From Calothrix sp. NIES-2100 (GTDB lineage: Bacteria; Cyanobacteriota; Cyanobacteriia; Cyanobacteriales; Nostocaceae): DNA of 64,000 nt. This document shows, piece after piece, positions 9,791 to 60,210 of the stretch (position 1 is the first letter of the stretch; every line of letters begins with the position of its first letter). A program made the translations under genes and the position numbers. Where the stretch lies: assembly GCA_002368195.1 (NCBI GenBank), contig AP018178.1, positions 5,337,286 to 5,401,285 of the forward strand, read 5' to 3'. The notes under the pieces were generated by a model. It was not told the origin of the DNA. It worked only from the letters and a program-made list of their open reading frames with translations, and did not search any database.

Positions 9791-9888
9791 GACATTTAAG
9801 ACATTTAAGACATTTAAGACATTTAAGACATTTAAGACATTTAAGACATTTAAGACATTTAAGATTTAAGACAGTTAAAACACTTAAG
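9791..9888. repeat. Tandem repeat of the 9-bp unit GACATTTAA, about 8 perfect copies plus degenerate copies.
   Basis: Read directly: gacatttaa repeated 9791..9862, decaying into gatttaagacagttaaaacacttaag. Confidence 0.9.
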
Positions 9889-16096: not shown

Positions 16097-16102
16097 TTTT
16101 TC

Positions 16103-17623: not shown

Positions 17624-17640
17624 AGAGGCGCAAAAAATCG

Positions 17641-17800
17641 AAGTTGCTCACTGAGCGTAAAGCCTCCGGCATAGCTTCTCCTGTCGGAGAGGCTGCGCCA
17701 ACGCTTAGCGCGTAGCGTCTCGCAGAGAAGTCGAAGTCAGCCAAGTTGCTCACTGAGCGAAGTCGAAGTGAGCGAAGTCGAAGTCAGCCAAGTCTAAATG
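17641..17800. repeat. Copy of a short dispersed intergenic repeat family (MITE/REP-like) plus GAAGTCGAAGT tandem units.
   Basis: The core ggcatagcttctcctgtcggagaggctgcgcc and flanking cgcttagcgcgtagcg recur at 54340..54480 and 60060..60180 (partly inverted). Confidence 0.7.
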
Positions 17801-17857
17801 TGCCCTCTATCTTGTCTTAATTACAATTTTTAACGGCGACTGAACTTATCTAAATAT

Positions 17858-20487: not shown

Positions 20488-21395
20488 AATAATTTACATT
20501 AATATCTCTTAGTCAATCAAAACTCAGCTAGCAGCAACTGTCAATTCAAGGGTTCTAGATATACACATTAAGGCTACTCTTGCAACCTTGATAATTGTAA
20601 ATTTAGTACACAATAGCGGAAATAAAGCCATCCCTCACAATGGCGCGAACATCTGATATGGTGAGCTTTTTGAATTCCGCACACCAGTACTAGGTTTTAA
20701 CCCCCAAGCTTATTTAAACATGGTAATTACCTATTCAAAGTTATTTTATCATTTTAAAATGAGGAACATATGAAGAAAGTAAAATTAGTGTTTTTACTTG
20801 TTTTAACCGAGACTTTATAGATAGTTTATTGATTCTTTATAGAAAGTGTAATATGTTGAAAACGGTAGTTTTTATTACATAAAATTTAGCTATTTATTGT
20901 AAACAGTCTGAAATAATACCAATAATTAACAAAAGATTTAAAAAAATGCAGTTTTATGTCAAAAAAATAAACTTGCACAATCTGGTTAAAAAACAGATCA
21001 GTAAATTTATCGAGGTGTAGTAACATCATATTTGCATTATGAATAAAACAACGAAAATTTATGTACTGGAAAATTTACCAAGAATTTATTTTTTAATAAG
21101 TATTTACGTAAGACAATATGGTTCAGATGCTCATCAGGTTGATTATGAATAAATAAGTTAGTTAATTTGAAAAGTATCCTAAAAATTCGCCAATACCATC
21201 TCTAAAAATAGATTTTCAATTCTCAAAAAAATCTAACGATTGAAACGTATTGGTTGAACATCTAAAGTTTCAACATCATTTCAGGATAGAGGGTGATTAG
21301 TTTCACTTCTAGCCAACTTTTTGATGTATACATGCTGAAAAATTTATTTTTTGAGGCAGACAAAAAAATTTCATTATCATTTAGGGAGAAAAAGA

Positions 21396-22606
21396 TGGCT
21401 AAAAAAATATTAGTAACCGGAGGAGCAGGTTATATTGGCTCCCATACAATCCGTCAATTAGGAGAAGCTGGCTATGATGTAGTGGTTTATGACAACCTCT
21501 CTACAGGTTCAGCAGCATCAGTAATTTATGGTGAACTAATTATTGGTAGTCTCGACGATAAAAATTTATTATCTCAAACATTTAGTCAACACAAATTTGA
21601 TGCAGTTTTGCATTTTGCAGCTCATCTATCTGTACCAGAGTCAGTAGTAAAACCTCTTGATTACTATACAAATAATACTTGTAATACCCTGAATTTATTG
21701 CATTGTTGTCAATTATTTGATGTAAAAAAAATAATTTTTTCTAGTACAGCTGCGGTTTATGGTCAACCTGAGGAATATCCCGTAACAGAGTTATCACCGA
21801 CCAAACCCATGAATCCCTATGGTCGTTCCAAGCTGATGAGCGAACAAATTATCCAAGACTTTGCGCAAGCATCTGGATTAAAATACGTGATTTTACGTTA
21901 CTTTAATGTCGCTGGAGCAGATACTACAGGAAAGTTAGGTCAGTCTGCCAAGAAAGCAGAACACTTAATTAAAGTGGCTTGTGATGCAGCTTTAGGTCGT
22001 CGTCCCTGTGTGAATATCTTTGGAACAGACTTTCCCACCGCAGATGGAACGGGAATTAGAGATTACATCCATGTGGAAGATTTAGCTACAGCCCATGTTG
22101 ATGCGTTGCAGTATCTCGAAGCAGGAAATGACAGTCAAATATTCAACTGTGGTTATGGTCAAGGCTATAGCGTGCGGGAAGTCTTAAAGATGGTGCAGAA
22201 AATCTCTGGAGTAGACTTTCCTGTAATTGAAAACCAACGACGAGCAGGAGATCCGGCTTGTGTTGTAGCCAGCGCTGATAAAATTCGCACCATATTAGGT
22301 TGGGAACCCAAATACAACAATTTAGAAACCATTGTCTCTACAGCTTTAAACTGGGAGAAAAAATTAATTGCTTTGGCCACATTAGAAAAACAGCTAGCAC
22401 AACAGAATTTCCGGCTAGGTGCTCTATTGCTAGAAAACAAAATTATTTCATCGACCGAATTAGAACGAGCTTTACACGAGCAATTAGTCACTAAGCAGAA
22501 ATTAGGGGAAATATTGGTGCATAAGTCAATTATTTCCACTCAAATGCTGGAAAAATTTTTGTTAGAGCAAACTTGGAGAAAACAAGGCATTTGGTTGCAA
22601 GTGTAA
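21396..22606 (+). CDS. galE: UDP-hexose 4-epimerase (GalE/SDR family) fused to a C-terminal T2SSE_N/MshEN-like domain with two tandem c-di-GMP-binding-type motifs.
   Basis: Start chosen at MAKKILVTGGAGYIGSH (Rossmann GxxGxxG) with GGAGAAAAAG 6 bp upstream. The track ORF begins 103 bp earlier with no RBS. YxxxK epimerase core. The C-terminus has RLGALLLENKIISSTELERALHEQ and KLGEILVHKSIISTQMLEKFLLEQ (22412..22560), which fit the RLGxxLLxxGxIxxxxLxxALxxQ MshEN motif. Confidence 0.8.
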
Positions 22607-44982: not shown

Positions 44983-47046
44983 GTGATATTGGATTTGAAG
45001 GGATTCTCCAAAATGAAGTGTAGACGAAAAGTAGCTGGTGGACAGAAGTCGCTCATCAGTTTCAGCTTAATATCTGCTTTGCTAGCACCTTATTCTGCTA
45101 TAATAGCCGCACCACCGAGAACCCCAGATCAAACTGTAAGTTGCGAGATTTTAGTGGTGGGTGGTGGACTCTCTGGTGCAGCCACAGCTTATGAAGGCTT
45201 GCTAGCTGGACGAACTGTTTGTTTAACGGAAATTACTGACTGGCTAGGGGGACAAATTTCTGCACAAGGAACCTCTGCGTTAGACGAACGACCTACCCAG
45301 CGGGCGCGTCAATTCTATTCTCGAGGTTATCTGGAATTACGCAACCGCATTGAGCGCAAGTATGGTAAGCTCAACCCTGGCAACTGTTGGGTAAGTGATT
45401 CGTGTTTTCTCCCCCATGATGCTCATAGCATTTTGGCTCAGATGCTCAAAGATGCCGAAAAAAGGGGGAAAGGTAAACTGCAATGGTTCGCCAACACGGT
45501 GATAAAGGATTTAGAAATTAGTGCTGATGGAAAAATAATTAATAGTGCGATCGCTATTCAACATCAACCAGCAAAAGGTGCATTACCTCTTAATACTTAT
45601 CCTTTATCTCAAACCATTGAAGATGCTTATACCTACGGTAACTCATCACGCTTTACCAAAAATATTATCCGTTTTGTACCTAAGCAAAATCCAAAAACCG
45701 CAGCAAATTGGTATGTTGTAGATGCCAGTGAAACTGGGGAAATCATTGCTTTGGCTGATGTTCCCTACCAATTAGGTATTGATGCTCGTTCCTACCTAGA
45801 ACCTTCTGCTTCTAGCCCCCAAAACGACCCCTATTGTCCGCAAGGTTTTACCTACACTTTTGCAATGGAGGCTACCAAAGACGCACAACCCCAGACAATG
45901 CCTCAATATTATCCCCAATACGCCCCATATTTCAGCTATGAATTACAACGGTTGGCAAACTTTGACTTAGTTTTTACCTACCGTCGCATTTGGAGTCCTA
46001 AAAAAGGACAACCCGCAAAATTCGGCGGTGTCAATTTTACTGCTTCTACGCCTGGGGATATCTCCATGCAAAACTGGACTTGGGGTAATGACTACCGTCC
46101 TGGAACTGCTGCGGATAATCTCATTTACACTCGCCAACAGTTGCAAAGTACTGGACAGTTGCAGCCTCATGGCTGGATGGGAGGACTCAGAACAGATACC
46201 CTGCGCAAAGCTGAAGAAAATGCTCTTTCCTATTACTATTGGCTAGTTGCTGGAACTACAGATTCTCAATTAGGGGATGGTGTGAAGCAGCCGCAACCAA
46301 ATCACCGCTTGTTATCAGGGTTAGATTCCCCAATGGGGACTGTGCATGGCTTATCGAAATATCCTTATATGCGGGAAGGACGGCGGATTATTGGTCGCCC
46401 CAGTTGGGGACAATCCTCTGGCTTTGGTATCTGGGAAATAGATATTTCTCGCCGTGACTATAATGATGAATATTACCGCAAAACTCTGCCCGCAGATATG
46501 TATAAGCAGTTAAGAGCAGCACTCGCAGGTTTAGAAGCAACATCGGTAATTACAGGGCAAGTTTCACCAGATAAAGCAATGCGGCGGACTCGCTCAACTA
46601 TCTTCCCTGACTCTGTAGGTATCGGTCACTACGCCATTGACTTCCATCCCTGCATGACACAAAGTCCTCCAGAAACACCTGGTAATACAGAACGTGCTGG
46701 TGAAAGGCGCGGCGCTGGCCAAGCTTATCCCTTCCAAATTGCGCTCAGAGCAATGATTCCCCAAAAAATTGACAATTTAATCGTCGGTGGTAAAAGTATT
46801 GCGACTAGTCATATTGCTGCGGCGGCTTATCGAGTACACTCCTTTGAATGGTCTGCGGGTGCGGCGGCGGGAACTGTTGCAGCTTTTGCATTGAAAAATG
46901 CGATCGCACCCTATCAATTAGTCGATGACTTACCCAAACCAGAACCGCAATTAGAAGCACTCAAACGTCTTTTAAAGGAAAATGGCAATCCTACTGCCTT
47001 TCCAGATACTTCGATTTTTAACCAAAATTGGGAGGATTGGCGCTAG
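44983..47046 (+). CDS. FAD-dependent oxidoreductase (FAD_oxidored-type) with signal peptide, 687 aa.
   Basis: ILVVGGGLSGAATAYEGLLAGRTVCLTE is a GxGxxG dinucleotide-binding fold. The hydrophobic N-terminus is LISALLAPYSAIIAA. Confidence 0.7.
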   Translation: MILDLKGFSKMKCRRKVAGGQKSLISFSLISALLAPYSAIIAAPPRTPDQTVSCEILVVGGGLSGAATAYEGLLAGRTVCLTEITDWLGGQISAQGTSALDERPTQRARQFYSRGYLELRNRIERKYGKLNPGNCWVSDSCFLPHDAHSILAQMLKDAEKRGKGKLQWFANTVIKDLEISADGKIINSAIAIQHQPAKGALPLNTYPLSQTIEDAYTYGNSSRFTKNIIRFVPKQNPKTAANWYVVDASETGEIIALADVPYQLGIDARSYLEPSASSPQNDPYCPQGFTYTFAMEATKDAQPQTMPQYYPQYAPYFSYELQRLANFDLVFTYRRIWSPKKGQPAKFGGVNFTASTPGDISMQNWTWGNDYRPGTAADNLIYTRQQLQSTGQLQPHGWMGGLRTDTLRKAEENALSYYYWLVAGTTDSQLGDGVKQPQPNHRLLSGLDSPMGTVHGLSKYPYMREGRRIIGRPSWGQSSGFGIWEIDISRRDYNDEYYRKTLPADMYKQLRAALAGLEATSVITGQVSPDKAMRRTRSTIFPDSVGIGHYAIDFHPCMTQSPPETPGNTERAGERRGAGQAYPFQIALRAMIPQKIDNLIVGGKSIATSHIAAAAYRVHSFEWSAGAAAGTVAAFALKNAIAPYQLVDDLPKPEPQLEALKRLLKENGNPTAFPDTSIFNQNWEDWR

Positions 47047-47059
47047 CTAATAAAATGAC

Positions 47060-47081
47060 AAAGTCCGCATAGGCGGACTTT
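47060..47081. terminator. Bidirectional hairpin between convergent genes (9-bp stem aaagtccgc / gcggacttt, loop atag).
   Basis: Seen directly, followed by an A-run on plus strand and flanked by T-rich minus-strand sequence. Confidence 0.5.
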
Positions 47082-47144
47082 GAAAAAAGGGAATATTGAA
47101 ATCGATAGAACAAAATTCACATATTAAATAATGTAGATTTATCA

Positions 47145-47414
47145 TTATTTATTTTGGTCATTATGCTGATTTGCTGGGGTGTCTACTTGCAAAGTATCCC
47201 CTTTTTGTTTAACTGAAAAGTCTGGTTCACTTTTGCTACTTTGAGCCAGTCCAGCAGCCCCCGCAATTGCCGTTCCTGCAAGGCCAAGACCAGCAGACCA
47301 TTTGGCATCAGTAATTTTTGGCGAAACTAAAACAGCAACACCAATTATAGCTCCGATACCAGCCATAAATAGGGGGGTTATAGCTCGAATTAATTCTGGG
47401 GTAAGAGATTTCAT
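47145..47414 (-). CDS. Small membrane protein, 89 aa.
   Basis: Two glycine-zipper-like TM segments (GIGAIIGVAVLV, GLGLAGTAIAGAAGLA). Confidence 0.45.
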   Translation of the reverse strand: MKSLTPELIRAITPLFMAGIGAIIGVAVLVSPKITDAKWSAGLGLAGTAIAGAAGLAQSSKSEPDFSVKQKGDTLQVDTPANQHNDQNK

Positions 47415-47658
47415 AGAAGTGCAATTATAGAATTAGCTTTTAACTAAATATATATACGCTCTAGAAGATACACATTCCAGAATGGTTTTACATGTTTAGC
47501 AAATGATAGTCATGGTAATGTAAAAACGAAGTACCCCACCGCACAAAGGGTGGGGTATTAGGTGAAATAGGTTAAAAGCAGATATCAGCAAGACATAGTA
47601 TTTCTGATTGAGAATAGGCAACTGTTCTGTTGCCTATTGCTCGCTTCCCATGTACTTA

Positions 47659-48093
47659 TTAGTTAGTGTATTTACTGATTACTTTTGCTAAATCTGGCAC
47701 AGCTTCCTCCACATGTTGCTTGGCTGAGCCGCGAAATTTTTCGTATGTTCCTTTAACGATTTGGCGCTTGGTGTTTTTGACCCGCTCATCGGTGACGCTC
47801 AGTAGTGCATCAGCAGTGCGATCGCGACTTGTAATCAGGTGTTCTACTGGATCGCCTTTCTCTTTACCTTCATTCCAAATCGGATCGATGGCTGTAAAGC
47901 ACTGGGGTAGAAGCTGCTCGACGACGTAAGGGATGTATCCTGGCTTCACTCCTTTCAATGCAGCGAAGGCTGTTTTCAAGGCTATACCGCTGATTCCTGA
48001 CTTGGATGCAACCTGTGCTTCGAGCATCGTGCAACAGTCATCCACCAACATGTCCTTTTTGTTTGAATTCAATAGTTCGTCGCTCAGTCCCAT
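47659..48093 (-). CDS. Hypothetical protein (about 144 aa from MGLSDELL).
   Basis: Start moved to the internal ATG at 48093. It has a perfect AAGGAGG Shine-Dalgarno 7 nt upstream. Confidence 0.5.
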   Translation of the reverse strand: MGLSDELLNSNKKDMLVDDCCTMLEAQVASKSGISGIALKTAFAALKGVKPGYIPYVVEQLLPQCFTAIDPIWNEGKEKGDPVEHLITSRDRTADALLSVTDERVKNTKRQIVKGTYEKFRGSAKQHVEEAVPDLAKVISKYTN

Positions 48094-48467
48094 TTCAATC
48101 CTCCTTATTGTCAAAGTACTTAATTTCCATTCAACCAATTTTGTCAACGAACAGGAAATTACAAAATAGCGCAGGAAGTCTGAAAGCTTACCAAGCGCAC
48201 CCAGAAATTTTAAACAATTTCTGGGTATGCTGTCGAAAATTCATATATATGAAGTAAATGTAAAGTATTTAATATTACACCTTATCCTTACAAAGGGAAG
48301 CATGAAAAGCAAGAAGGCAAGCGGTAAGTAACCGCACTGCCTTCTCTGGCGTTATTGAGTAAAAATTAACGGCTTGATCAATACTTCGCCAACTTTTGAA
48401 CAGCCCTACTCTTCTAAAGTGAAGGTATTTTGGCTCGCGATCGCAGGGAGTATTATGATTGAGCTAT

Positions 48468-48773
48468 TTACTTTTCAGGTTCTTGGTGATGACCTGTGCC
48501 TGTTTCAGTTTCCAGTAGTCTTGAAATAAATACGTCTGGTTTTCTACTGACCACAGACTTAACTTTATCAATGGCAATTACTTCACTGATTTTGACAATC
48601 ATTTCCCACAGAGTATCCTCCTCTGTCTCTTTGTTGTAAGTTCTGTGCTTAAACCACAACAAATCATCCCAAACTCCGATGACTGTGGCGAAATACCACT
48701 TATCTCTTATTAGTATCCAGATTTCTTGTTCTAGGTAGGTCTGAAGAATAGATTTCACAACGGCTGAGATCAT
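48468..48773 (-). CDS. Hypothetical protein, 101 aa.
   Basis: ORF only. Confidence 0.35.
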   Translation of the reverse strand: MISAVVKSILQTYLEQEIWILIRDKWYFATVIGVWDDLLWFKHRTYNKETEEDTLWEMIVKISEVIAIDKVKSVVSRKPDVFISRLLETETGTGHHQEPEK

Positions 48774-49125
48774 GAAAAGATATGCGCTACAGATTACACG
48801 GATGTTACAGATTATGGCTACAGTGTAATTACGTATTTAATAAGTACAAAATCGCCTATGCCTTTAGACATAAGCCTTGAGAGATATCCATTTAATTCCT
48901 TGCTTGGCAAAGTCTACATCTTTCCAGAATGTCGATTGCTTATACATGTAGTGTGTAGAAGAGAACTTCTAATTTTGAAATTAGGAACTGAGAATTGGAA
49001 AGGGAATGAGGGGGACAAGGGAGTGTGGGGAGTTTTCTTCACCATGCGCACAACCCATTGCCTTTCAAATTGGTATTACTTTAATAACAGAAATAACAGA
49101 TAAACTGACTTAAGGCGAGGTGTTT

Positions 49126-49497
49126 ATGGCAGAAGCGAAAAACGTACTAGGCACAAACCTGGAGATTTGTTGTACTTCTCCGATGACTGGTTATTACCGC
49201 GATGGCACTTGCAATACAGGAGGTCAGGATTTTGGAATGCACGTTGTTTGTGCCCAAGTGACAGCAGAATTTCTGGAATTTACTAAATTGCGAGGAAATG
49301 ACCTCAGCACAGCTGTCCCGGAATATAATTTTCCTGGATTGAAAGCGGGCGATTGCTGGTGTTTATGTGCGGCTCGTTGGCAAGAAGCGCTAGAAGCTGG
49401 TGTTGCTCCCCCAGTCGTCCTGACAGCAACCCATGCTAGAGCTTTGGAAGCCTGTAATTTAGAGGATTTGAAAAAACACGCATTACCGGGAAAATAA
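49126..49497 (+). CDS. DUF2237-family conserved hypothetical protein.
   Basis: MAEAKNVLGTNLEICCTSPMTGYYRDGTCNTG is recognisably DUF2237-like. GAGG lies 5 nt upstream of the second ATG. Confidence 0.6.
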   Translation: MAEAKNVLGTNLEICCTSPMTGYYRDGTCNTGGQDFGMHVVCAQVTAEFLEFTKLRGNDLSTAVPEYNFPGLKAGDCWCLCAARWQEALEAGVAPPVVLTATHARALEACNLEDLKKHALPGK

Positions 49498-49500
49498 GGA

Positions 49501-49600
49501 AGGGAGCAGAGGGGACAAGGGAGACAAGGGAGACAATTAACTGTTGACTGTTGACTGTTGAGTGTTGACTGTTGTCCAATGCCCAATGCCCATTAAATCC
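49501..49600. repeat. STRR-type heptamer arrays (GGGGACAAGGGAGACAA; CTGTTGA x5 = STRR3 CAACAGT family; CAATGCC units).
   Basis: Read directly. Confidence 0.85.
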
Positions 49601-50456
49601 TGTGATAGTTTGTTAATTCAAAACCGTTGTTTGTTAAACTCTGGCGCACCTGCTGACTTAAAAGGGCAGAAAATTCTGCTGCACCTGAGCCTGATGGCCC
49701 GTTCAGTGGTTCGCCTGAGTTAATAACTGCGGGATGAGAATATATTTCTACTAGGTCTGCCTGAATTTGCGGGATCAGTCCTAGTAAGTATTCTTCAGTC
49801 ATATTTCCAGTTTGCAGCAATCCATATACGCGCTCGGCGTATTTTATACCGTGAGCGTTGAGTAAACTTTCACCATAACGGCGCAGTCCGCCAAATACTC
49901 CTGACCAGACTAACTTAGTGAGTAGCTCTCGACGGTCAAGTTTTAGGCTGATTTTCAATTCTTCAGATGGCAGACGGATGACTCGGATTTTAAATTCTTG
50001 AGCTAATTCTCCCAATAACCGTAATATTACGGGATGGGCATGTAAATGTAAATGCCCATCAACATGAGAAAGGGGCAGCCCGGATGCACGGAATTTTTCC
50101 AACTGGGCGCGGATTTCTTGCCGCAATTCCTCACGGGCAGCGGGATGAAATTGATAACGTAAGCCAGCTACCAGAGGACTATCAGAAAAGTTACCGAGTG
50201 AGTCTACCAAATGGGGAATTTGGGAGGGAGGCAAAACAGCCCGACCGCACACCAGTACTAAATGCAGACCAACTGCCAAATTGGGATGAGTACGTGATAA
50301 GGCGATCGCTTCTTCGGCAGCATCTCCAGTTACCATCAAACTGGTACTAGTTAGCACACCCTGTTCATAAGCTTGGATAATTGCTTGATTGACACCAGCA
50401 GAAAAGCCAAAGTCATCACCATTAATAATGGCAAAGCGGGGTTTGTCAATTGTCAT
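49593..50456 (-). CDS. hpnK: YdjC/ChbG-family carbohydrate deacetylase, HpnK-like (hopanoid biosynthesis-associated), 287 aa.
   Basis: The N-terminus FAIINGDDFGFSAGVNQAIIQAYEQGVLTSTSLMV is the YdjC signature. It sits immediately downstream of an HpnJ-like radical SAM gene. Confidence 0.65.
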   Translation of the reverse strand: MTIDKPRFAIINGDDFGFSAGVNQAIIQAYEQGVLTSTSLMVTGDAAEEAIALSRTHPNLAVGLHLVLVCGRAVLPPSQIPHLVDSLGNFSDSPLVAGLRYQFHPAAREELRQEIRAQLEKFRASGLPLSHVDGHLHLHAHPVILRLLGELAQEFKIRVIRLPSEELKISLKLDRRELLTKLVWSGVFGGLRRYGESLLNAHGIKYAERVYGLLQTGNMTEEYLLGLIPQIQADLVEIYSHPAVINSGEPLNGPSGSGAAEFSALLSQQVRQSLTNNGFELTNYHRI

Positions 50457-50653
50457 TTGTCAATTGTCATTTGTCATTGGGCATGGGGCATGGGGCATTG
50501 GGCATGGGGCATTGGGCATTGGAAACAATTTTGGATTTTGGATTTTGGATTTTACATTGGAATCCAAAATCGCAAATCTAAAATCTAAAATTTCTTGTCC
50601 TCCTTGTCCTCCTTGTCTCCCTTGTCCCCTCATCCCCCTCATCCCCCTCTGCC
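50457..50653. repeat. Compound STRR array filling the hpnJ-hpnK spacer. It has TTGTCAA/TTGTCAT units, (GGGCATG/GGGCATT) x7, GGATTTT x3 facing AATCCAAAAT/CTAAAAT, then (CTTGTCCTC, CCTCATCCC) units.
   Basis: Read directly. It contains a long imperfect inverted repeat (ggattttggattttggatttt / aatccaaaatcgcaaatctaaaatctaaaat). Confidence 0.85.
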
Positions 50654-52102
50654 CTAGTTCCCCGCTGCGTGTGCAGCAGTTTGCTGATTGCGGCGTTCTT
50701 TGAGGTAGGAGAAAAACTCCCCGCCTTCTCGCAGGCGGCGTACCATCATCTGTCGGTCTGCGAGCATTTCTTTGACAATGGGGATGATTGCCTTGGGACG
50801 GAAGTAAAATTTCCGGTACATCCGCTCAACTGCATCTTCAATTTCCTCACTGGAAAGGGTGGGATATTGCAGTGTTGAGGTTTGAATACCAGAGTTAGCT
50901 ACTAGAGATTGATTGGTAAACCAGCCGTTTTCCTTAGCTTGTTCGTAAAGTTCTGTACCTGGGTATGGTGCAGCAATGGAAACTTGAATTGTATGGGGAC
51001 TGAGTTCACAGGCAAAGCGAATTGTCTCTTCTACGGTTTCTTGAGTTTCAATTGGTAGACCAATAATGAATGTTCCGTGAACGGTGATGCCGAGTTTATG
51101 GCAGTTTTTCATAAATTCCCGCGCCACTTCTAGCTTGATGCCTTTCTTAATCCGGTTGAGAATGTCTTGGTTACCAGATTCAAAACCAACAAGCAGCAAC
51201 CGCAGGCCGTTGTCGCGCAGGGTTTTGAGGGTGTCGTAGTCTAAATTGGCACGGGCGTTACAACTCCAAGTGAGTTTGAGCCGCTTCATATGTTCGCTAA
51301 TTGCGATCGCGCGATGTTTGTCTATGGTAAAGGTATCGTCATCAAACATATATTCCCGCACTTTGTCGCCGAAAATGGCTTTGGCTTCTTCCATCTCCCG
51401 CCCGACAACTTCTGGGGTTTTATGCCGATATAAGTGACCGCCAATTGTCTGCGGCCAAAGGCAAAAAGTACATTTTGCCGGACAACCGCGCCCAGTGTAA
51501 AAGGAAATGTAGGGATGCAGTAAGTAGCCGATGAAATATTTATTAATATCTAAGTCACGGGCATAGGTAGGGAGGACGCTGGGCATAGCATCCCAATCGT
51601 GAATTAAGGGGCGCTCCTCATTGTGACGCACGTTAGAGAACTGGTCACGATAGCTCAGACCCTGAATATTTTCCCAAGGTATGCCTTGAGCTAGTTCCTT
51701 ACAGGTATAGTCAAATTCGTTACGACAAACAAAGTCGATTACTGGATTACCCCGCAGCGTCTCCTCGGGTAAGACTGCCACATGCGCCCCTACAAAGCCA
51801 ATCTGTACGTCTGGATTTTGCGCTTTAATAGCTTGGGCACACTTCACGTCATTAGCGAGTGAGGGTGTACTGGTGTGCATGATTACCAATTCGTAATCCT
51901 TAGCAATTTTCAGCACATCTTCCACAGTTTGATTATGTGGTGGAGCATCCACCAGCCTGCTACCTGGCACAAGTGCAGCAGGTTGCGCTAGCCATGTGGG
52001 ATACCAAAAGGAAGTAATTTCGCGCTTAGCTTGGTATCTTGAACCAGCACCACCGTCAAAGCCATCAAAGGAAGGAGGACTGAGGAACAAAGTTTTCTTC
52101 AT
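50654..52102 (-). CDS. hpnJ: B12-binding-domain radical SAM protein, HpnJ-like (hopanoid biosynthesis-associated radical SAM), 482 aa.
   Basis: The N-terminus MKKTLFLSPPSFDGFDGGAGSRYQAKREITSFWYPTWLAQ matches HpnJ as recalled from memory. CPAKCTFC is the radical SAM cysteine cluster. Confidence 0.75.
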   Translation of the reverse strand: MKKTLFLSPPSFDGFDGGAGSRYQAKREITSFWYPTWLAQPAALVPGSRLVDAPPHNQTVEDVLKIAKDYELVIMHTSTPSLANDVKCAQAIKAQNPDVQIGFVGAHVAVLPEETLRGNPVIDFVCRNEFDYTCKELAQGIPWENIQGLSYRDQFSNVRHNEERPLIHDWDAMPSVLPTYARDLDINKYFIGYLLHPYISFYTGRGCPAKCTFCLWPQTIGGHLYRHKTPEVVGREMEEAKAIFGDKVREYMFDDDTFTIDKHRAIAISEHMKRLKLTWSCNARANLDYDTLKTLRDNGLRLLLVGFESGNQDILNRIKKGIKLEVAREFMKNCHKLGITVHGTFIIGLPIETQETVEETIRFACELSPHTIQVSIAAPYPGTELYEQAKENGWFTNQSLVANSGIQTSTLQYPTLSSEEIEDAVERMYRKFYFRPKAIIPIVKEMLADRQMMVRRLREGGEFFSYLKERRNQQTAAHAAGN

Positions 52103-52402
52103 TGATATTTCTCCTTAGTCAATAGTCAATTGTCAATTGTCAATGGTTAAGGGTAATTGGGCATGGAGCATGGGGCATCCCTTCGACTTCGCTCAGGGCA
52201 AGTGGGCAAGAGTCAAGAGTCAATGGTCAATGGTCATTAGTTATTCTCACCCATCTTCCTTGTCTCCCTTCCCTTATCTTCCTTCTGCCCGGACACTGAG
52301 TTTCGACTACGCTCAACTACCGCGAAGTCGTACCCTACGGGAAGCAAGCTACGCGGAGCGTCTCCCACAGAAGTGCTGCCTTCTGCCCTCTGCCTTCATA
52401 AA
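52103..52402. repeat. STRR array in the spacer between the squalene-synthase-family gene and hpnJ (GTCAATT/GTCAATG units, GGGCATG units, CAAGAGT units).
   Basis: Read directly. Confidence 0.8.
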
Positions 52403-53233
52403 CTAGCTAGCTTTAATGTTCACATCAATAAACTGCTTGAGGAGTGCCAAAACATCGTTCCGACTGAGTTTTTCTTTGCCATTAGCTAAAGCGTCAAGTG
52501 TTCCATGTGCCAAGGTGAGGGGAATTTGGCAAAAATCTAAAGCTGGCCCCGCAGCAAGGCTTTGAGTGTAAGCATCTGCTAGCTTTAGGTTACGGCGTGC
52601 ATACTCATGCATATTTGCAGCACTCCAGCCTTCGGGATAGAAATCTACCCCCCGTTTTAAATCTTCACTGTGGTTACGCAAGATGTTAACTGCTTGTAAA
52701 CCCCGACCAAACCCAATTGCTTGAGTCCGGTTAGTTTCCGTGCCATCATACCAAGCCCATAAATCAGACAATAACAAGCCCACCGCACCTGCAACCCCAA
52801 ATGTATAACGATCCAAATCAGACTCTGTCTGAATTTTCCAGTTATTTTCTGCCCAGTACGCCATTCTGTCTGCCATTGCGGCGGTGGCATCCCAAATTCG
52901 GGGGGCGATCGCTTCTGGTGCTAATATTGACCATTCTCTAATTCCTAGGGTAACTTCTGGTAAAGTATTCTCATAACCATTAAATCCTAAGGAAAAAGCA
53001 TCAACTGCGAAACCATCAACCCCCGCTTGTAATGTTAAGCTGATTGTTCGTAACAACTGTGCCTTAGTTGGGTTATCCAGTTCTGGATGATCTTCAATTT
53101 CATCAATAGCACGCATACACAAGTATGCTGATGCAACTGCCTCTTGTAACCCTGACGGTAAAAGACTAATTGGAATGTAAAAAGTTCGACTAGTTTCCTT
53201 CAGGATTTGCAGTGCATCTCTACGTAAATCCAT
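52403..53233 (-). CDS. Squalene/phytoene synthase family protein (HpnC/HpnD-like size, about 276 aa from MDLRRDAL).
   Basis: Aspartate-rich YLCMRAIDEIED and later DxxxD-type motifs. Start moved to the ATG at 53233 with a GGAGTG SD. It cannot be assigned to HpnC, HpnD or Sqs from sequence alone. Confidence 0.65.
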   Translation of the reverse strand: MDLRRDALQILKETSRTFYIPISLLPSGLQEAVASAYLCMRAIDEIEDHPELDNPTKAQLLRTISLTLQAGVDGFAVDAFSLGFNGYENTLPEVTLGIREWSILAPEAIAPRIWDATAAMADRMAYWAENNWKIQTESDLDRYTFGVAGAVGLLLSDLWAWYDGTETNRTQAIGFGRGLQAVNILRNHSEDLKRGVDFYPEGWSAANMHEYARRNLKLADAYTQSLAAGPALDFCQIPLTLAHGTLDALANGKEKLSRNDVLALLKQFIDVNIKAS

Positions 53234-54339
53234 GTTTTCACTCCTCTCTTGATTTTCACACCACATGAAGTTTTCGGTTTTTTTTGATGATACTGGATCT
53301 GTTTTTACTAAATCTTAAGAACTTTATTTTCGCTAGTATTTCCTCTAACAATTAATAGTTTACGGTATCACAATTAACAAAAATCTCACATTGCTCAAAG
53401 TTTAGTCTAGTATATAGGGCTTTGGTGACAAAAATGCACGGAGGATAGGATGGGATGGCTCTCATCATCTTTTCGGGCAAATTATCAATATTTATGCTAA
53501 TATTTGTGCAATTATCTGCAAATTTTCCTACTAATGAACAGCTAATTTCCGAGGAGTAAATGCCTTGAAGTCTGGATGAAGCTGAATAGAGTAGCATAGT
53601 TATTGTATCCATAGAGACAAATAATCAAATTACTGTTAATCGGTCATAGTAACTCAAAACGACGATTAATGCCTGTAGTCTAAGCAAGCACAGCTTCTTG
53701 AAGGTAGGGAATAAAGAGAGTAAACAAATACAAATATTACTCCTCGCCCTCATGTAATAATCCAGTGTAGTTTTTGACAAAATTACTGAATCTGGAAGCT
53801 CAAGTTTAGCTCAAGACAATACCCAGCCTAACTTTATTTCAAAAATCCAATATGAATTTTATAGAGGATACTTATTAATTACGATAATAGAGAATAAGTA
53901 GTTCCCGAAAATTTAATCACTTATTGCTTTAATTTTTACCCGCGTTCAGTCCACAGCATAGATAGCAATTGTCAGAATAGCGATGAATTTATGCTGTTTT
54001 ATGCGCTTCATTTGTGGATCTGACATTGTGTAAAGTTGTCAGCAATGGTAATTTTGAGCTTGAGTTTCAACTAATTTATCTAAATTGATCTATAACGTGC
54101 TTCCTGTTTCTCGTGCCGATATATGCATGACAATACCACGCCGAGTTTACGTTATATTTACTTACTCCTCTGTCTAGAAGTTTGTGATGGAACTGATAGC
54201 TGTTCTTTCTCTAGCCTACTTCCTTTGCTCTACCAGTTTTTATCAATATTTAGATGCGATCGCCACATTAAGGCGATTTACAGGAATAAATATACCGCCG
54301 CCGTTGGTTTCGACTTTGCTCAACCAACTCCAGAGTCGA

Positions 54340-54480
54340 GAGTTGAGCGTAAAGCCTTCTCTACGAGAGGCTTCGCCAACGGCATAGCTTCTCCTGTCGG
54401 AGAGGCTGCGCCCTAAGCGAAGCTATGCCGTAGGCTTTACGCTTAGCGCGTAGCGGACGCACCAAAAGTCGAAACTCGCC
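54340..54480. repeat. Second copy of the dispersed intergenic repeat family (see 17641..17800).
   Basis: ggcatagcttctcctgtcggagaggctgcgccctaagcg plus cttagcgcgtagcggacgcacc. The latter is also partly found at 44878..44897. Confidence 0.7.
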
Positions 54481-54993
54481 AACACAGGTATTTTCTTTCT
54501 CGGAAATCACCTAATCTAGAAAATTAAGCTTGAGGATATGATCACAGATGAAAAGAAGCTTAAGTCTGTGAGCAAGGTAAGAGAAAAGCAAAAAGAAAAG
54601 AGTACAAGGAAAAATTTTTAAATTTCTCCTTGACTTCCTCTACCTTCGTATCTTTCCGGCTTGTCCCAGAACCAACTTGAAAAGTTTGTTGGCGGCGCCT
54701 GATTGCTGAAGAATAAACTTTTATTGATATTTGGCGTATCTACACACAGATAGAACTAATAAATCTACTTTTTTGGGGATGCGATCGCTCAAAATATAAT
54801 TATCATAATTAGAAATTTGAAGGATTAAGTGAATTAACTTAAAATAAATTGGCTTGATTCTACATATGTGTGTATATTTATTATTGTTTTGCTCAAAATA
54901 ATTCTCTGATTTAAAAATCTTTCGCTAGAGAGATGTACATAACTATAAAGATAATGCCAAAAATATATTATCTAGACTACGAGGCTTAGAAAA

Positions 54994-55434
54994 ATGCCAA
55001 AAGTAGGTAAATATGCATTACTGAGTAATTATTTATTAATAATAACCTGGTTAACATCGTGTAGCGGTAAATCTACTTCAGAAGATATGACTAAGGAAAT
55101 ACAAAATGTCTCTTCCTGGTCAGCAACAGCCCAGATGGTAGGTGATGCTTGGATACAGGGTGCTGTACCGAAAAAATATGCGCAAACGACTTTAAAGAAA
55201 GCTCAACAAGAAATTCTCAAAGAAAAAGACAATATAGTCAAACTCCAAACATCTCAAAAGGCAGTTGCCCAGCATAAATCTGTACTTTTAACAGAAGTTT
55301 TATTATTAGCTAATAAAACAGAACAAATGTCAAGAGCAATTACCCAAGCAAATCGTCACCAGGTGCAAAAATCTCTGAAAGAATTAGAAGCAGAAACTAG
55401 AGTTCTCCACAGACTCAGAAACATACCCGAATAA
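54994..55434 (+). CDS. Putative lipoprotein, 146 aa, coiled-coil rich.
   Basis: N-terminus LLIITWLTSCSGKS (lipobox-like LTSC). The stop is 4 bp before the next gene. Confidence 0.5.
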   Translation: MPKVGKYALLSNYLLIITWLTSCSGKSTSEDMTKEIQNVSSWSATAQMVGDAWIQGAVPKKYAQTTLKKAQQEILKEKDNIVKLQTSQKAVAQHKSVLLTEVLLLANKTEQMSRAITQANRHQVQKSLKELEAETRVLHRLRNIPE

Positions 55435-55438
55435 AGCC

Positions 55439-56653
55439 ATGAAGAAAATTTGGGAAATTGCACTGGGAATTATTACCAGTATCGGCGGCTTTCTGGATGT
55501 AGGTGCGATCGCTACAGCAGCAGAAGCTGGATCTACCTATGGCTTTCAACTAATTTGGGTAATAATCCTAGGAACAATTTGTGTCATCTCTTTAGTAGAA
55601 ATGTCTGGGCGATTAGCAGCTGTTAGTAAGCATACCTTAGCAGCAGCAGTGCGGGAACGCTTTGGTTTTAACTTTTATGTCATTCCCTTATTTGCAGAAA
55701 TTATTGTTGATTTTCTGGTTTTAGCTGCGGAAATTGGCGGTGTTTGTATAGCCTTACAACTAGTAACAGGTATTAGCTTCCAATGGTTTGCTTTACCTGT
55801 AGCTTTTGCTATTTGGTTATTACTATGGAAAGGCACATTTGGTCTAATTGAAAACGGCATTTCTGCTTTAGGTTTAGTTACTTTAGTATTTGTCTATGCT
55901 ACGTTTAAATTATATCCTTCATTAACAGAAATTGGCAGAGGTTTTTTGCCTACAATCTCAAGGGAAGATACTCCACATTATTTATTTATTGCAGTGAGTA
56001 TTTTAGGTGCATTAATTAGCCCTTACCTATTTTATTTTTACTCATCTGGTGCAGTGGAAGATAAGTGGGATGAAGGAAATATTGGCGTAAATCGTGCTGT
56101 TGCTGGCTTGGGAATGGGCTTTGGTAGTATTGTATCGCTCGGCGTGCTAATTGTAGCAGCACTAACACTCAACCCTAAAGGCATCCAAGTTGATAGCTAT
56201 GAACAAGCAGCGTTGATGCTAACTGAACCTTTAGGCTACTGGGGTTTTATTTTGTTTGCAGCATCGTTGGGAATAGCTTGCTTTGGTGCTGCGCTGGAGG
56301 TGACTCTGGATACAGCCTATATTGTGGCTCAAGCTTTTGGTTGGAATTGGGGCGAAAATCTCAAACCAAAAGATGCAGCGCGGTTTAGTTTGGTTTATAC
56401 CGTGTTTGTATTTTTAGCGTCGTTACTAATGGTATTCGGTATCGATCCATTACAACTGACTTTATTTTCAATGGCGATTACAGCAGTTATTTTACCACCA
56501 GTGATAGTGCCGTTTTTGGTTTTAATGAACGATAAATTATATGTGGGCAAGTATCGTAATGGTTGGATTAGTAATAGCGTGGTGATATTTACAATTGCGC
56601 TGGCATTTGTGATGGCTATTGTGGCAATTCCTTTGGAGTTTATTGGAGGATAA
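55439..56653 (+). CDS. NRAMP-related divalent-metal transporter family protein (divergent), 404 aa.
   Basis: TSIGGFLDVGAIATAAEAGSTYGFQLIWVIILGTI parallels the NRAMP TM1 region (GPGFL..DPGN...GA.YGY.LLWV). About 11 TM helices. The canonical DPGN is replaced by DVGA. Confidence 0.55.
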   Translation: MKKIWEIALGIITSIGGFLDVGAIATAAEAGSTYGFQLIWVIILGTICVISLVEMSGRLAAVSKHTLAAAVRERFGFNFYVIPLFAEIIVDFLVLAAEIGGVCIALQLVTGISFQWFALPVAFAIWLLLWKGTFGLIENGISALGLVTLVFVYATFKLYPSLTEIGRGFLPTISREDTPHYLFIAVSILGALISPYLFYFYSSGAVEDKWDEGNIGVNRAVAGLGMGFGSIVSLGVLIVAALTLNPKGIQVDSYEQAALMLTEPLGYWGFILFAASLGIACFGAALEVTLDTAYIVAQAFGWNWGENLKPKDAARFSLVYTVFVFLASLLMVFGIDPLQLTLFSMAITAVILPPVIVPFLVLMNDKLYVGKYRNGWISNSVVIFTIALAFVMAIVAIPLEFIGG

Positions 56654-57468: not shown

Positions 57469-57470
57469 TT

Positions 57471-57519
57471 AGTCAACAGTCAACAGTCAACCGTCAACCG
57501 TCAACCGTCAACCGTCAGT
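57471..57519. repeat. STRR3-type heptamer array (CAACAGT/CAACCGT x7).
   Basis: agtcaacagtcaacagtcaaccgtcaaccgtcaaccgtcaaccgtcag. Confidence 0.9.
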
Positions 57520-57538: not shown

Positions 57539-60016
57539 ATGCCGCAATATTTTGGGAAATTACCAACAACCAACCAACCTTGGAACAATATCGGTGGTGT
57601 ACAAGCTGTAAATTGGAGCGATGCCTACGGTGGTAAACAACGCACTGTTAATTTTGAGTGTGGTAACTCACGGTTACAAATTACCATACTTTCCTCTAAT
57701 TTAGTTCGAGTCAGGTTTGCACCGACTGGGGAATTTACGCCCCGCCGTTCTTGGGCGGTAACAGTGGATGATTCAGAATGGGAAAAAGTACGCTTTGAGG
57801 TGCAAGATACTGAAACGACGGTAGAAATTACAACTGAAAAAATTCGCTTGTGTGTGCAAAAGCAAGATTCTCGCCTAGTTTGCTTTGACAAAGCTAATCG
57901 TCCCTTTGCCGAAGATGTTGATATGGGGATTGGTTGGCGTAGGGGCGCTGTTGCTAGCTGGAAGAAAATTTACGCCGATGAGCATTTTTATGGCTTTGGG
58001 GAACGCACAGGCTTTCTGGATAAACTCAGCCAAGTGAAAACTAACTGGACAGTTGATGCTTTAGATTACGATGCGTTGACTGATGAAATGTACCAAGCCA
58101 TTCCATTTTTTATGGCTTTGCGTCCAGATGTAGGTTATGGCATCTTTTTTAACACGACATTTTGGAGTCAATTTGATATTGGTGCCCAAAAGCCTGGTGT
58201 TTGTCAGATGGAAACTCGCGGCGGAGAGTTAGATTATTACATTATCTATGGACCCGAACCAGCGGATATTTTGCGTACATATACGCAATTAACTGGGAGA
58301 ATGTCGCTACCACCAAAATGGGCGCTAGGTTATCATCAATGTCGCTGGAGTTACGAATCAGAAGATGTGGTGCGGGAACTAGCGCGAGAATTTCGTCAGC
58401 GCCGCATTCCTTGCGATGTCATCCACCTGGATATTGACTATATGCGGGGTTATCGTGTGTTTACCTGGAGTCCGAAACGCTTTCCCGAACCCGCAAAATT
58501 GGTAAGTGATTTGGCTCAAGCTGGTTTTAAGACAGTGACAATTATCGACCCAGGTGTGAAGTATGAGCCAGAAGCCAATTATCACGTTTTCGATCAAGGA
58601 ATAGCCAACGATTATTTTGTGCGTAAAGCCGATGGCGTGTTATTTCACGGCTATGTGTGGCCGGAAAAGGCTGTTTTTCCTGATTTTTTACGTTCTGATG
58701 TGCGTCAATGGTGGGGTGATTTACACAAAAGCCTCACCGATATTGGTGTGGCAGGAATCTGGAATGATATGAATGAACCCGCCATAGATACTCGCCCCTT
58801 TGGGGATGGGGGGGAGAAGATTTGGTTTCCTCTGGATGCGCCGCAGGGGGATGGGGGGGATGAGGGGGACAAACAGACGCGGGGACGCGGGGATGAAACA
58901 GATGGGGGGGATGAGGGGGATGAGGGGGATCAGGCAAAAAGCGAAAATGTCTCCGCGTCCCCGTGTCCTCGCGTCCCCGTGTCCTCTTCCACTCATCTAG
59001 AGGTGCATAATTTGTATGGGTTGATGATGGCTAAAGCTTGTGCTGAAGGGTTGCAGCGCCATCGGCAAAAAGAGCGATCGTTTGTGTTGACACGTTCTGG
59101 TTATGCTGGGGTGCAGCGTTGGTCTTCGGTGTGGATGGGGGATAACCATTCATTGTGGGAGCATTTGGAAATGTCCTTACCCATGCTGTGTAACATGGGG
59201 CTTTCGGGTGTGGCGTTTGTCGGTTGTGATATTGGTGGGTTTGCAGGTAACGCCACTGCGGAGTTATTTGCCCGGTGGATGCAGGTAGGAATGCTTTACC
59301 CACTGATGCGCGGACATTCTGCCATGTCTACGGCGCGTCATGAACCTTGGGTATTTGGCGATCGCACAGAAAATATCTGTCGGGAATATATTAACCTGCG
59401 CTATCAGCTATTACCTTACATCTACAATCTGTTTTGGGAAGCGGCACAAACAGGCGCTCCGATTTTAAGACCACTATTTTACCATTATCCGCGCGATCGC
59501 CAAACCTACACCCTTTACGATCAGGTATTTCTGGGAGCTTCTCTGATGGCTGCACCGATTTACCGTCCTGGCGTTGAGTACCGCGCTGTCTATTTACCCG
59601 CAGGTACTTGGTATGACTGGTGGACTGGAGAAAAATACACAGGCCCTACCCATATTTTGGCCCATGCACCATTAGAAAGAATGCCACTTTATGTCCGTGG
59701 TGGCGCCATCATCCCCATGCAACCTGTGCAGCAATATGTCGATGAACTTCCACAAAACTTACTGCATTTGCGTATTTGGCCTGGTGAGAACCAATACTTA
59801 TTTTTTGAAGATGATGGTATCACCAATAATAGTCATAATCAAAACTACTCTTTACGAGAAATCAGGGTATATACGCAAGAAAATCAAACCGTCGTTGATA
59901 TTGTTAAAAGAGTAGGGGAATGGATACCACCAAAAAGAGAAATAATTGTTGAAGTAGTCGGCATTGGCGAACAACGCTTTACTGATGATGGCGGCGCATA
60001 TATCTTGAGATTTTAA
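57539..60016 (+). CDS. Glycoside hydrolase family 31 alpha-glucosidase, 825 aa, with an in-frame low-complexity insertion.
   Basis: GIWNDMNEP is the GH31 catalytic-nucleophile signature. HLDIDYM and WMGDN are supporting motifs. Confidence 0.85.
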   Translation: MPQYFGKLPTTNQPWNNIGGVQAVNWSDAYGGKQRTVNFECGNSRLQITILSSNLVRVRFAPTGEFTPRRSWAVTVDDSEWEKVRFEVQDTETTVEITTEKIRLCVQKQDSRLVCFDKANRPFAEDVDMGIGWRRGAVASWKKIYADEHFYGFGERTGFLDKLSQVKTNWTVDALDYDALTDEMYQAIPFFMALRPDVGYGIFFNTTFWSQFDIGAQKPGVCQMETRGGELDYYIIYGPEPADILRTYTQLTGRMSLPPKWALGYHQCRWSYESEDVVRELAREFRQRRIPCDVIHLDIDYMRGYRVFTWSPKRFPEPAKLVSDLAQAGFKTVTIIDPGVKYEPEANYHVFDQGIANDYFVRKADGVLFHGYVWPEKAVFPDFLRSDVRQWWGDLHKSLTDIGVAGIWNDMNEPAIDTRPFGDGGEKIWFPLDAPQGDGGDEGDKQTRGRGDETDGGDEGDEGDQAKSENVSASPCPRVPVSSSTHLEVHNLYGLMMAKACAEGLQRHRQKERSFVLTRSGYAGVQRWSSVWMGDNHSLWEHLEMSLPMLCNMGLSGVAFVGCDIGGFAGNATAELFARWMQVGMLYPLMRGHSAMSTARHEPWVFGDRTENICREYINLRYQLLPYIYNLFWEAAQTGAPILRPLFYHYPRDRQTYTLYDQVFLGASLMAAPIYRPGVEYRAVYLPAGTWYDWWTGEKYTGPTHILAHAPLERMPLYVRGGAIIPMQPVQQYVDELPQNLLHLRIWPGENQYLFFEDDGITNNSHNQNYSLREIRVYTQENQTVVDIVKRVGEWIPPKREIIVEVVGIGEQRFTDDGGAYILRF
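58795..58990. repeat. STRR-like GGGGATGA/GGGGACAA heptamer cluster plus inverted repeat (gacgcggggacgcgggg / ccccgtgtcctcgcgtccccgtgtcc) embedded in-frame in the GH31 CDS.
   Basis: Same units as the intergenic array at 50580..50660 (reverse complement). It encodes GDGGDEGDKQTRGRGDETDGGDEGDEGDQ...SASPCPRVPVSSS. Confidence 0.75.
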
Positions 60017-60059: not shown

Positions 60060-60210
60060 ACTTCGATTTCTCTGCGAGACGCTACGCGCTAAGCGTAAAG
60101 CCTACGGCATAGCTTCTCCTATCGGAGAGGCTGCGCCCTAAGCGTTGGCGCAGCCTCTCCGCAGGAGAAGCTATGCCCAATGCCCAATGCCCAATGCCCA
60201 ATGCCCAATA
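60060..60210. repeat. Third copy of the dispersed repeat family (inverted orientation, forms a perfect hairpin ggagaggctgcgcc-ctaagcgtt-ggcgcagcctctcc) followed by (CAATGCC) x5 STRR units.
   Basis: Read directly. Confidence 0.75.

Follow-up and report, generated by a model that had tools for sequence, protein, structure and literature searches.

A hopanoid gene cluster with a squalene synthase-like gene, hpnJ and hpnK, and tandem repeats in its spacers, in Calothrix sp. NIES-2100

The 64,000 nucleotides (nt) of Calothrix sp. NIES-2100 analyzed here, referred to below as the window, contain a hopanoid gene cluster whose spacers carry arrays of short tandem repeats. Three open reading frames (ORFs), sqs, hpnJ, and hpnK, lie head to tail and co-oriented on the minus strand, as an initial annotation of this DNA had described them, and the lengths of 197 bp and 300 bp that it gave for the two spacers are exact. 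The features of the locus are listed here in order of position.

49498-49592, no strand assigned: spacer between the convergent genes hpnK and DUF2237, 95 nt, array-filled
49502-49530, plus strand: potential G-quadruplex flanking hpnK
49593..50456, minus strand: hpnK, 287-aa YdjC-family deacetylase (predicted to convert N-acetylglucosaminyl bacteriohopanetetrol, BHT-GlcNAc, to bacteriohopanetetrol (BHT) glucosamine); TIGR03473, Pfam YdjC
50457-50653, minus strand: hpnJ-hpnK spacer, 197 bp
50479-50516, plus strand: potential G-quadruplex, antisense to hpnK and 23 nt before its start
50527..50592, no strand assigned: central AT-rich inverted repeat made of the opposed heptamer arrays GATTTTR and AAAATCC
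50619..50663, minus strand: potential G-quadruplex on the sense strand, overlapping the hpnJ stop
50654..52102, minus strand: hpnJ, 482-aa B12/radical-SAM protein; TIGR03471, B12-binding and Radical_SAM domains
52103-52402, minus strand: sqs-hpnJ spacer, 300 bp
52403..53233, minus strand: sqs, 276-aa predicted squalene synthase of the Synechocystis sll0513 type
53234..53435, minus strand: conserved AT-rich non-coding block 5' of sqs, candidate promoter and 5' leader

Both hpn genes fall within curated families. HpnJ scores 801.4 bits against TIGR03471 (cut-off 577.6) over profile positions 1-471 of 472, and carries a B12-binding domain (PF02310, 38.5 bits), a Radical_SAM domain (PF04055, 83.3 bits), and the CxxxCxxC cluster motif in the form CPAKCTFC. 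The protein might have belonged to a B12/radical-SAM family unconnected with hopanoids, but the next best family reaches only 138.5 bits. HpnK scores 289.3 bits against TIGR03473 (cut-off 232.6) and 249.1 bits against Pfam YdjC (PF04794), so both proteins lie above curated NCBIfam cut-offs and the names first given to them hold. According to the Burkholderia cenocepacia genetics reviewed in PMC13459092, HpnI adds N-acetylglucosamine (GlcNAc), HpnK deacetylates BHT-GlcNAc, and HpnJ contracts the ring to the cyclitol ether. By analogy, HpnJ and HpnK are predicted to play the same roles in NIES-2100. All three genes had been proposed to act jointly in making BHT cyclitol ether (BHT-CE) from BHT-GlcNAc; this agrees with the literature on HpnK and HpnJ, but Sqs would act at the start of the pathway only.

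The glycosyltransferase HpnI, which had been thought to lie outside the window, is indeed absent from it (tblastn with three cyanobacterial HpnI proteins, best E = 0.46), and no hopanoid gene was found among the other window ORFs scanned. It is encoded elsewhere in NIES-2100: protein P0326 scores 384 bits against the HpnI equivalog, with a cut-off of 310, and its gene is on the 9.9-Mb chromosome record to which the window belongs. In the assembly of run DRR315829, P0326 and the window HpnJ are both found as exact matches. Since HpnI is encoded in the same genome, the BHT-CE pathway is complete at this step, and hpnI is unlinked in this lineage. The strain is therefore predicted to make BHT-CE, a lipid that prevails among related bloom-forming genera and serves as a biomarker in sediments. 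In Dolichospermum and Aphanizomenon, BHT-CE makes up 74-92% of bacteriohopanepolyols, and BHT glucosamine is also present (PMC5642901); the loci of these two genera in our comparison share the sqs-hpnJ-hpnK arrangement.

That comparison covered 80 related HpnJ loci. The gene hpnK adjoins hpnJ in 56 of them, as in the window, sqs lies directly 5' of hpnJ in 49, and hpnI stands beside hpnJ/hpnK in 32 (HpnI equivalog 369 bits, cut-off 310). The orders encountered include sqs-J-K-I, J-K-I, and I-J-K, and in several Nostocaceae sqs-J-K is followed by DUF2237, a cyclic-peptide-type ABC exporter, and hpnI. The DUF2237 gene of the window (49120-49497, plus strand) converges on hpnK, a position kept in 24 of the 80 loci. 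Two short-read assemblies of this strain (DRR315829 and DRR315830, from Logan) break inside the repeat-bearing spacers on both sides of hpnJ, leaving the gene alone on a 1.6-kb contig; the flanks stop 100 and 72 nt upstream and 52 nt downstream. Such breaks are a hazard for synteny calls in metagenome-assembled genomes of Nostocales.

The gene at the head of the cluster had been called hpnC/D-like, a description that comparison with the curated families contradicts. Pfam SQS_PSY matches the protein at 91.6 bits, while HpnD (TIGR03465) gives it 48.5 bits against a cut-off of 278.6 and HpnC (TIGR03464) 19.9 bits against 250.45. It falls below every NCBIfam equivalog cut-off, the best being squal_synth (TIGR01559) at 81 bits versus 286.75, in a match limited to profile positions 5-212 of 337; the window Sqs has 276 aa versus about 340-360 aa in that family. 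It is identical at 276/276 residues to a protein of Calothrix sp. NIES-2100, and its close homologs, 276-aa proteins of cyanobacteria, carry the JGI name farnesyl-diphosphate farnesyltransferase.

The appropriate comparison is with sll0513 of Synechocystis sp. PCC 6803, a protein of 277 aa whose deletion abolishes squalene (Englund et al. 2014, PMC3953072). The same study gives an identity of just 29.5% between sll0513 and the 359-aa Thermosynechococcus enzyme, and reports proteins in other cyanobacteria that exceed 60% identity to sll0513 (PMC3953072). The published sll0513 antisense RNA and two quantitative PCR primers translate to MSLRRNAL, TSRTFYI, and DEVEDHP, and the window Sqs reads MDLRRDAL, TSRTFYI, and DEIEDHP at the same places, with 19 of 22 residues identical over the three fragments. 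In an alignment with human squalene synthase, the SRTF flap (SRxF), DEIED, and FCxIP (here FCQIP) are retained, and DEIED, the first Asp-rich motif, is invariant across 13 family members from cyanobacteria, Chloroflexota, Streptomyces, and Firmicutes. On sequence grounds, then, the window gene belongs to the sll0513-type one-enzyme squalene synthases. This tidies an annotation: the gene 5' of hpnJ in many Nostocales would be a squalene synthase of this type and not HpnC or HpnD.

Some points count against this assignment. The likeness to sll0513 was measured over 22 residues taken from published oligonucleotides, together with length; the second Asp-rich motif of the window Sqs is NHSED, with Asn in first place, a position that varies across the 13 family members, which keep only the last Asp of this motif; the protein fails all curated equivalogs, squal_synth included; and solved squalene synthases are distant relatives (E = 8e-12 over residues 18-216). 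The gene might thus encode an HpnC/HpnD-like half-reaction enzyme, some other prenyl-diphosphate enzyme, or a phosphatase like YisP of B. subtilis, and stand beside hpnJ by chance. We think this very unlikely, given the length, N-terminus, and hallmark motifs shared with sll0513, the motifs that align with the human enzyme, the JGI family name, and HpnD and HpnC scores that are lower still than that of squal_synth. No HpnE match and no second SQS-family copy were found among 20 window ORFs scanned against NCBIfam, which leaves an HpnC/HpnD-like enzyme without an HpnE-like partner among them. We considered a flavin-dependent (FAD) oxidoreductase at 44983-47046 as a candidate HpnE and rejected it; it has no NCBIfam match, and Pfam assigns it to PF12831. 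Finally, alr1805, the ortholog in Nostoc PCC 7120, persists alone without hpnJ or hpnK, which fits a general squalene-supplying enzyme. We found no literature reports on alr1805, alr1806, or alr1807.

Because the N-terminus is shared with sll0513, we place the sqs start codon at 53233. The ATG there is preceded, at a distance of 6 nt, by a Shine-Dalgarno sequence, GAGGAGTG, which is kept even outside Nostocales. An alternative in-frame ATG at 53266, which would give a 287-aa ORF, is probably not used. The region upstream is itself conserved: a block of about 200 nt (53234-53435), AT-rich, is 72-89% identical across Nostocaceae and is also found 5' of alr1805. Within it, ATCCAGTATCATC and TGGTGT do not vary, and it holds two candidate promoters of the sigma-70 type, including a promoter-like TTGTCA-N16-TAGACT at 53431..53404. 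The block has no Rfam match, and RNAalifold on 38 aligned sqs upstream regions returned no consensus structure (energy 0), so that a riboswitch-like leader is unsupported. We also considered a shared hopanoid operator and set it aside, as the conserved upstream motifs occur essentially only 5' of sqs in the window and the related loci searched.

Arrays of tandem repeats occur in both spacers of the cluster. We called them with Tandem Repeats Finder (TRF) and compared a strict period-7 scan with 20 shuffles; strict arrays cover 268 bp of the window and 0 bp in the shuffles, and four of the seven flank hpn genes. The arrays in the hpn spacers are therefore STRR sequences (repetitive DNA made of short tandem repeats) as the term is used for heterocystous cyanobacteria, that is, tandem intergenic heptamers in a Nostocales genome, far above chance. 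Both spacers had been said to consist almost entirely of heptamers, which is nearly so for one of them. In the hpnJ-hpnK spacer, TRF arrays occupy 179/197 nt (91%), although 123 nt of these are 7-mers and 56 nt are the 9-mers GGGGATGAG and GGACAAGGA; on the sense strand the 9-mers come first, followed by GATTTTA, AAAATCC, CCCAATG, and TGACAAA. The sqs-hpnJ spacer has just 106/300 nt (35%) in TRF arrays, and runs from G-rich GGCAGAG arrays through inserts resembling dispersed repeats to C-rich and TTGACAA arrays and the AAGGAG Shine-Dalgarno of hpnJ. Its inserts, at 52291-52374 (84 nt) and 52177-52206 (30 nt), match short dispersed repeats in the window and at other loci. The spacer 3' of hpnK belongs to the same phenomenon, with arrays over 89/95 nt (94%) composed of GGGCATT, ACAGTCA, and the 9-mer AAGGGAGAC.

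In both hpn spacers the 5' half is G-rich and the 3' half C-rich. The extended inverted symmetry that had been attributed to both is present in the hpnJ-hpnK spacer, where arms of 32 nt (50527-50558 and 50561-50592) are 81% complementary and 2 nt apart, but the sqs-hpnJ spacer has only short CAATTG-type palindromes. As RNA, the hpnJ-hpnK spacer folds at -60.3 kcal/mol (z = -2.3 against dinucleotide shuffles, -4.7 against mononucleotide shuffles) and the sqs-hpnJ spacer at -94.1 kcal/mol (z = -2.0 against dinucleotide shuffles), a modest margin over the dinucleotide shuffles in both cases. A regular-expression scan for four or more tracts of at least three Gs, with loops of 1-7 nt, found seven potential G-quadruplex sites in the window, three of which flank hpnJ or hpnK.

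The arrays also reach into coding sequence. One TRF array (50442-50478) covers the hpnK start codon and the first five codons, and the ATG of hpnK is part of a repeat unit (ACAAATG / CCCAATG). No reading frame of (CCCAATG)n contains a stop, and every third unit provides an ATG in frame. Among relatives, the first 5-6 residues of HpnK are likewise array-encoded and specific to the genome (MTIDKP, MPNIKS, MPHSP, and others).

Across the related loci, the sqs-hpnJ spacer measures 10-322 nt, with one of 1113 nt that holds an extra ORF, and the hpnJ-hpnK spacer 26-2737 nt, the long ones holding intervening ORFs. Arrays are found in 68% of sqs-hpnJ and 36% of hpnJ-hpnK spacers, compared with 14% of the remaining co-directional spacers of these loci; they cover 20% of hpn spacers, 3.8% of other intergenic DNA, and 0.28% of coding sequence. 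Most Nostocaceae have arrays here, built from genome-specific units such as GGCAGAG with CCCAATG, GGGGACT with CCCATTA, or GGGGAGT with CCCAATT. Of the hpn spacers that bear arrays 77% show the G-then-C polarity, as do 52% of the other spacers that bear them, and the reverse order is almost nil; since the other spacers show it too, the polarity is general to arrays. In two strains from metagenomes, with sqs DNA 95.5% and 94.1% identical to that of the window, the sqs-hpnJ spacers measure 143 and 283 nt versus 300 in the window, are built from different units, and are conserved only over about 20 nt at each end. Because strains so nearly identical differ in both the length and the units of the spacer, the hpn spacers evolve much faster than the genes and retain only a general architecture. 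We also asked whether the spacer cassette is a mobile element: blastn of the spacers against all loci returned only array-level matches and short modules such as GGACAAGAAATTTTAGATTT shared with other spacers, too little to call it one.

We infer that sqs, hpnJ, and hpnK are most likely transcribed together from the conserved promoter and leader 5' of sqs, because the only strongly conserved non-coding block (53234-53435) lies there, because the sqs-hpnJ spacer of close relatives consists of arrays and the hpnJ ribosome-binding site alone, and because the arrays extend into the start codon of hpnK. No intrinsic terminator (a GC-rich hairpin followed by a U-run) is present in either spacer, and the 10 terminator-like sites in 49300-55100 all fall outside them. 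An Rfam 15 scan of 47000-56000 gave a single match with E <= 1, a sub-threshold cobalamin hit (17.9 vs 31.5 bits) on the opposite strand inside sqs, which we take as chance. Overall, we read the locus as a hopanoid cluster, sqs-hpnJ-hpnK, likely expressed as one transcript, with spacer arrays that are generic STRR sequences and not a dedicated attenuator; we put the probability of this reading at about 0.8.

Several observations pull in the other direction. Spacers of 197 and 300 bp are long within an operon; genomes that lack sqs upstream must express hpnJ from a promoter of its own; and TTGACA-containing heptamers could serve as -35 boxes. The enrichment of arrays and the stronger folding relative to neighboring spacers could reflect selection and not neutral turnover, in a comparison that is itself confounded by the shared ancestry of the loci. 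The first three of these points suggest a different arrangement, in which the genes form three separate transcription units and the spacers supply promoters and terminators, or act as DNA insulators through G-quadruplexes or cruciforms. The TTGACAA unit holds a perfect -35 hexamer, and one promoter-like match (50477..50449) lies within an array. Of the potential G-quadruplexes, one follows the hpnJ stop on the sense strand and one precedes hpnK on the template strand, as in Nostoc repeats, and many genomes have other genes between hpnJ and hpnK, or no sqs upstream. However, promoter-like matches are not in excess (14 vs 11.1 +/- 3.2 in shuffles), and in close relatives the sqs-hpnJ spacer passes from arrays to the Shine-Dalgarno with no -10 element between the array and the start. 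Separate units would also have to accommodate arrays that reach into the hpnK start codon and a sole strongly conserved block that lies 5' of sqs. We therefore regard three transcription units as unlikely and retain the single transcript.

A second question is whether the arrays do anything specific within such a transcript. It had been suggested that they act as processing or attenuation structures, and the more developed form of this idea is that they form particular RNA hairpins that process, stabilize, or attenuate the message and so yield differential levels of sqs, hpnJ, and hpnK from one transcript. The spacers are recurrently structured, which leaves the suggestion some probability. 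Besides the 32-nt inverted repeat of the hpnJ-hpnK spacer, folding z-scores below -2 occur in 48% of sqs-hpnJ and 72% of hpnJ-hpnK spacers among relatives; the medians are -1.9 and -3.2, versus -1.4 in 90 control spacers, and folding is better than in these other co-directional spacers by Mann-Whitney tests (p = 0.04 and 0.0004) that ignore the relatedness of loci. Arrays are retained at these sites across many genera though the units change, and the same role has been speculated on for the hupSL spacer (PMC2670836). Against this, no hairpin sequence or register is conserved, and close strains differ fully in length and unit type; spacers shrink to 10 nt (of a range of 10-322 nt) between sqs and hpnJ and to 26 nt between hpnJ and hpnK; there is no hairpin with a U-run and no Rfam match; and polarity and folding are general to array-bearing spacers and follow from composition. 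A dedicated processing or attenuation role thus appears improbable to us, and the generic reading of the arrays is preferred.

In the pathway that we propose, Sqs would join two farnesyl diphosphates and reduce the product to squalene, and shc, hpnH, and hpnG, presumed to lie elsewhere in the genome, would carry squalene on to BHT. HpnI, encoded elsewhere on the chromosome, would attach N-acetylglucosamine to BHT, HpnK would strip the acetyl group, and the B12/radical-SAM protein HpnJ would contract the sugar ring to give BHT-CE. The arrays would arise and turn over fast, probably by slippage, while keeping the G-rich 5' / C-rich 3' rule, and G-then-C arrays may give the transcript local structure. 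If mRNA stability, ribosome access, or pausing were affected, the effect would be one generic to STRR sequences.

A more speculative possibility is that an architecture of G-rich array, AT-rich hairpin, and C-rich array has been selected, being kept across Nostocaceae while the units turn over. Acting through its hairpin and G-quadruplexes on the polycistronic mRNA or on the DNA, it might tune the late hopanoid enzymes relative to Sqs, with CCCAATG as a slippage-tolerant supplier of the hpnK start. We consider this unlikely.

Repeats of the same kind are found elsewhere in the window. A GH31 alpha-glucosidase-like ORF (57539-60016, plus strand) has an in-frame insert (58845-58986) of 9-mer and 8-mer repeats, GGGGATGAG among them, that translates to GDGGDEGD...GGDEGDEGD and splits the family match into residues 83-416 and 485-753; this insert is an STRR-like array tolerated in coding sequence. 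The units (GTCAACC)n fill, at 57470-57518, the 70-bp co-directional spacer before this gene, and (ATGCCCA)n follows it at 60171-60210. Because these flanking arrays use the same units as the hpn spacers, families of units are common to the genome as a whole. At 9791-9888, an 839-bp intergenic region holds a clean 9-mer array, GACATTTAA x 11. A short dispersed repeat of 33-45 nt, 93-100% identical, occurs in both orientations at the intergenic sites 54375-54455, 60080-60177, and 17651-17699, and a 15-mer array, CAGCGAAGTCGAAGT, at 17723-17794 has a GCGAAGTCGAAG core in common with the insert of the sqs-hpnJ spacer. The window also contains an IS200/IS605-type gene for a TnpB RNA-guided endonuclease (3037-4206, minus strand, 508 bits) and a Pel-like polysaccharide region (14279-22606) with a response-regulator/adaptor fusion, a PelF-type GT4, and a GalE with a C-terminal c-di-GMP-binding domain.

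Taken as a whole, the cluster is ordinary: it is already publicly annotated, and its repeats are typical of Nostocales. What is of modest interest is that the arrays persist at both spacers despite fast unit turnover, that an ATG-bearing heptamer gives the hpnK start, and that sqs has a conserved leader in which no RNA structure is recognizable. The hpn spacers offer a comparative case for the old unsolved question of STRR function, and reveal no new mechanism by themselves. The operon may nevertheless be convenient for testing what arrays do, as position, polarity, and folding are kept while units and lengths change between strains with genes about 95% identical.

The closest known systems fall into two sets, the first concerning the enzymes. 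Sqs resembles sll0513 in length (276 vs 277 aa), in its N-terminus, and in TSRTFYI and DE(I/V)EDHP, and both proteins are far from the 359-aa Thermosynechococcus squalene synthase and those of the eukaryote type; the difference is that in NIES-2100 hpnJ and then hpnK follow sqs. With the proteobacterial HpnC/HpnD/HpnE route, the locus shares the SQS_PSY superfamily, a similar protein size, and a hopanoid cluster setting, but it has one gene instead of a pair, scoring far under the HpnC and HpnD cut-offs. The BHT-CE pathway of Burkholderia cenocepacia and Methylobacterium (Schmerk et al. 2015, as summarized in PMC13459092) uses the same HpnI, HpnJ, and HpnK equivalogs, with the same predicted chemistry. 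In NIES-2100, by contrast, hpnI is unlinked, and a predicted one-enzyme squalene synthase and not hpnCDE heads the cluster.

The second set concerns the repeats. Arrays inside an operon had been called unusual, which precedents in Nostocales contradict. PMC2670836 describes STRR heptamer hairpins in the hupS-hupL spacer of several Nostocales and a nif cluster whose intergenic regions are "highly variable but structured"; roles in transcript stability, translational coupling, or pausing have been suggested for them. As in those cases, the NIES-2100 arrays are 7-bp tandem units with hairpin potential, between genes that are probably co-transcribed. In Nostoc PCC 7120, heptamer repeats are strongly over-represented in intergenic DNA and have G-quadruplex potential (Rehm et al. 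2015, PMC4692102), the G-rich units occupying the coding strand in the 50 nt that follow a stop or the non-coding strand in the 50 nt that precede a start (PMC4692102); a preprint reports that heptamer repeats affect recF and recO expression in the same strain. The window obeys this strand rule, with G-quadruplex motifs at the hpnJ stop (50619-50663) and before hpnK (50479-50516). Unlike the hupS-hupL, nif, and PCC 7120 repeats, those of NIES-2100 occupy three consecutive spacers, have 9-mers mixed in, and supply the hpnK start from an array unit (CCCAATG / ACAAATG), and in relatives the occupancy of the hpn spacers by arrays is about 2.5-5 times that of neighboring co-directional spacers.

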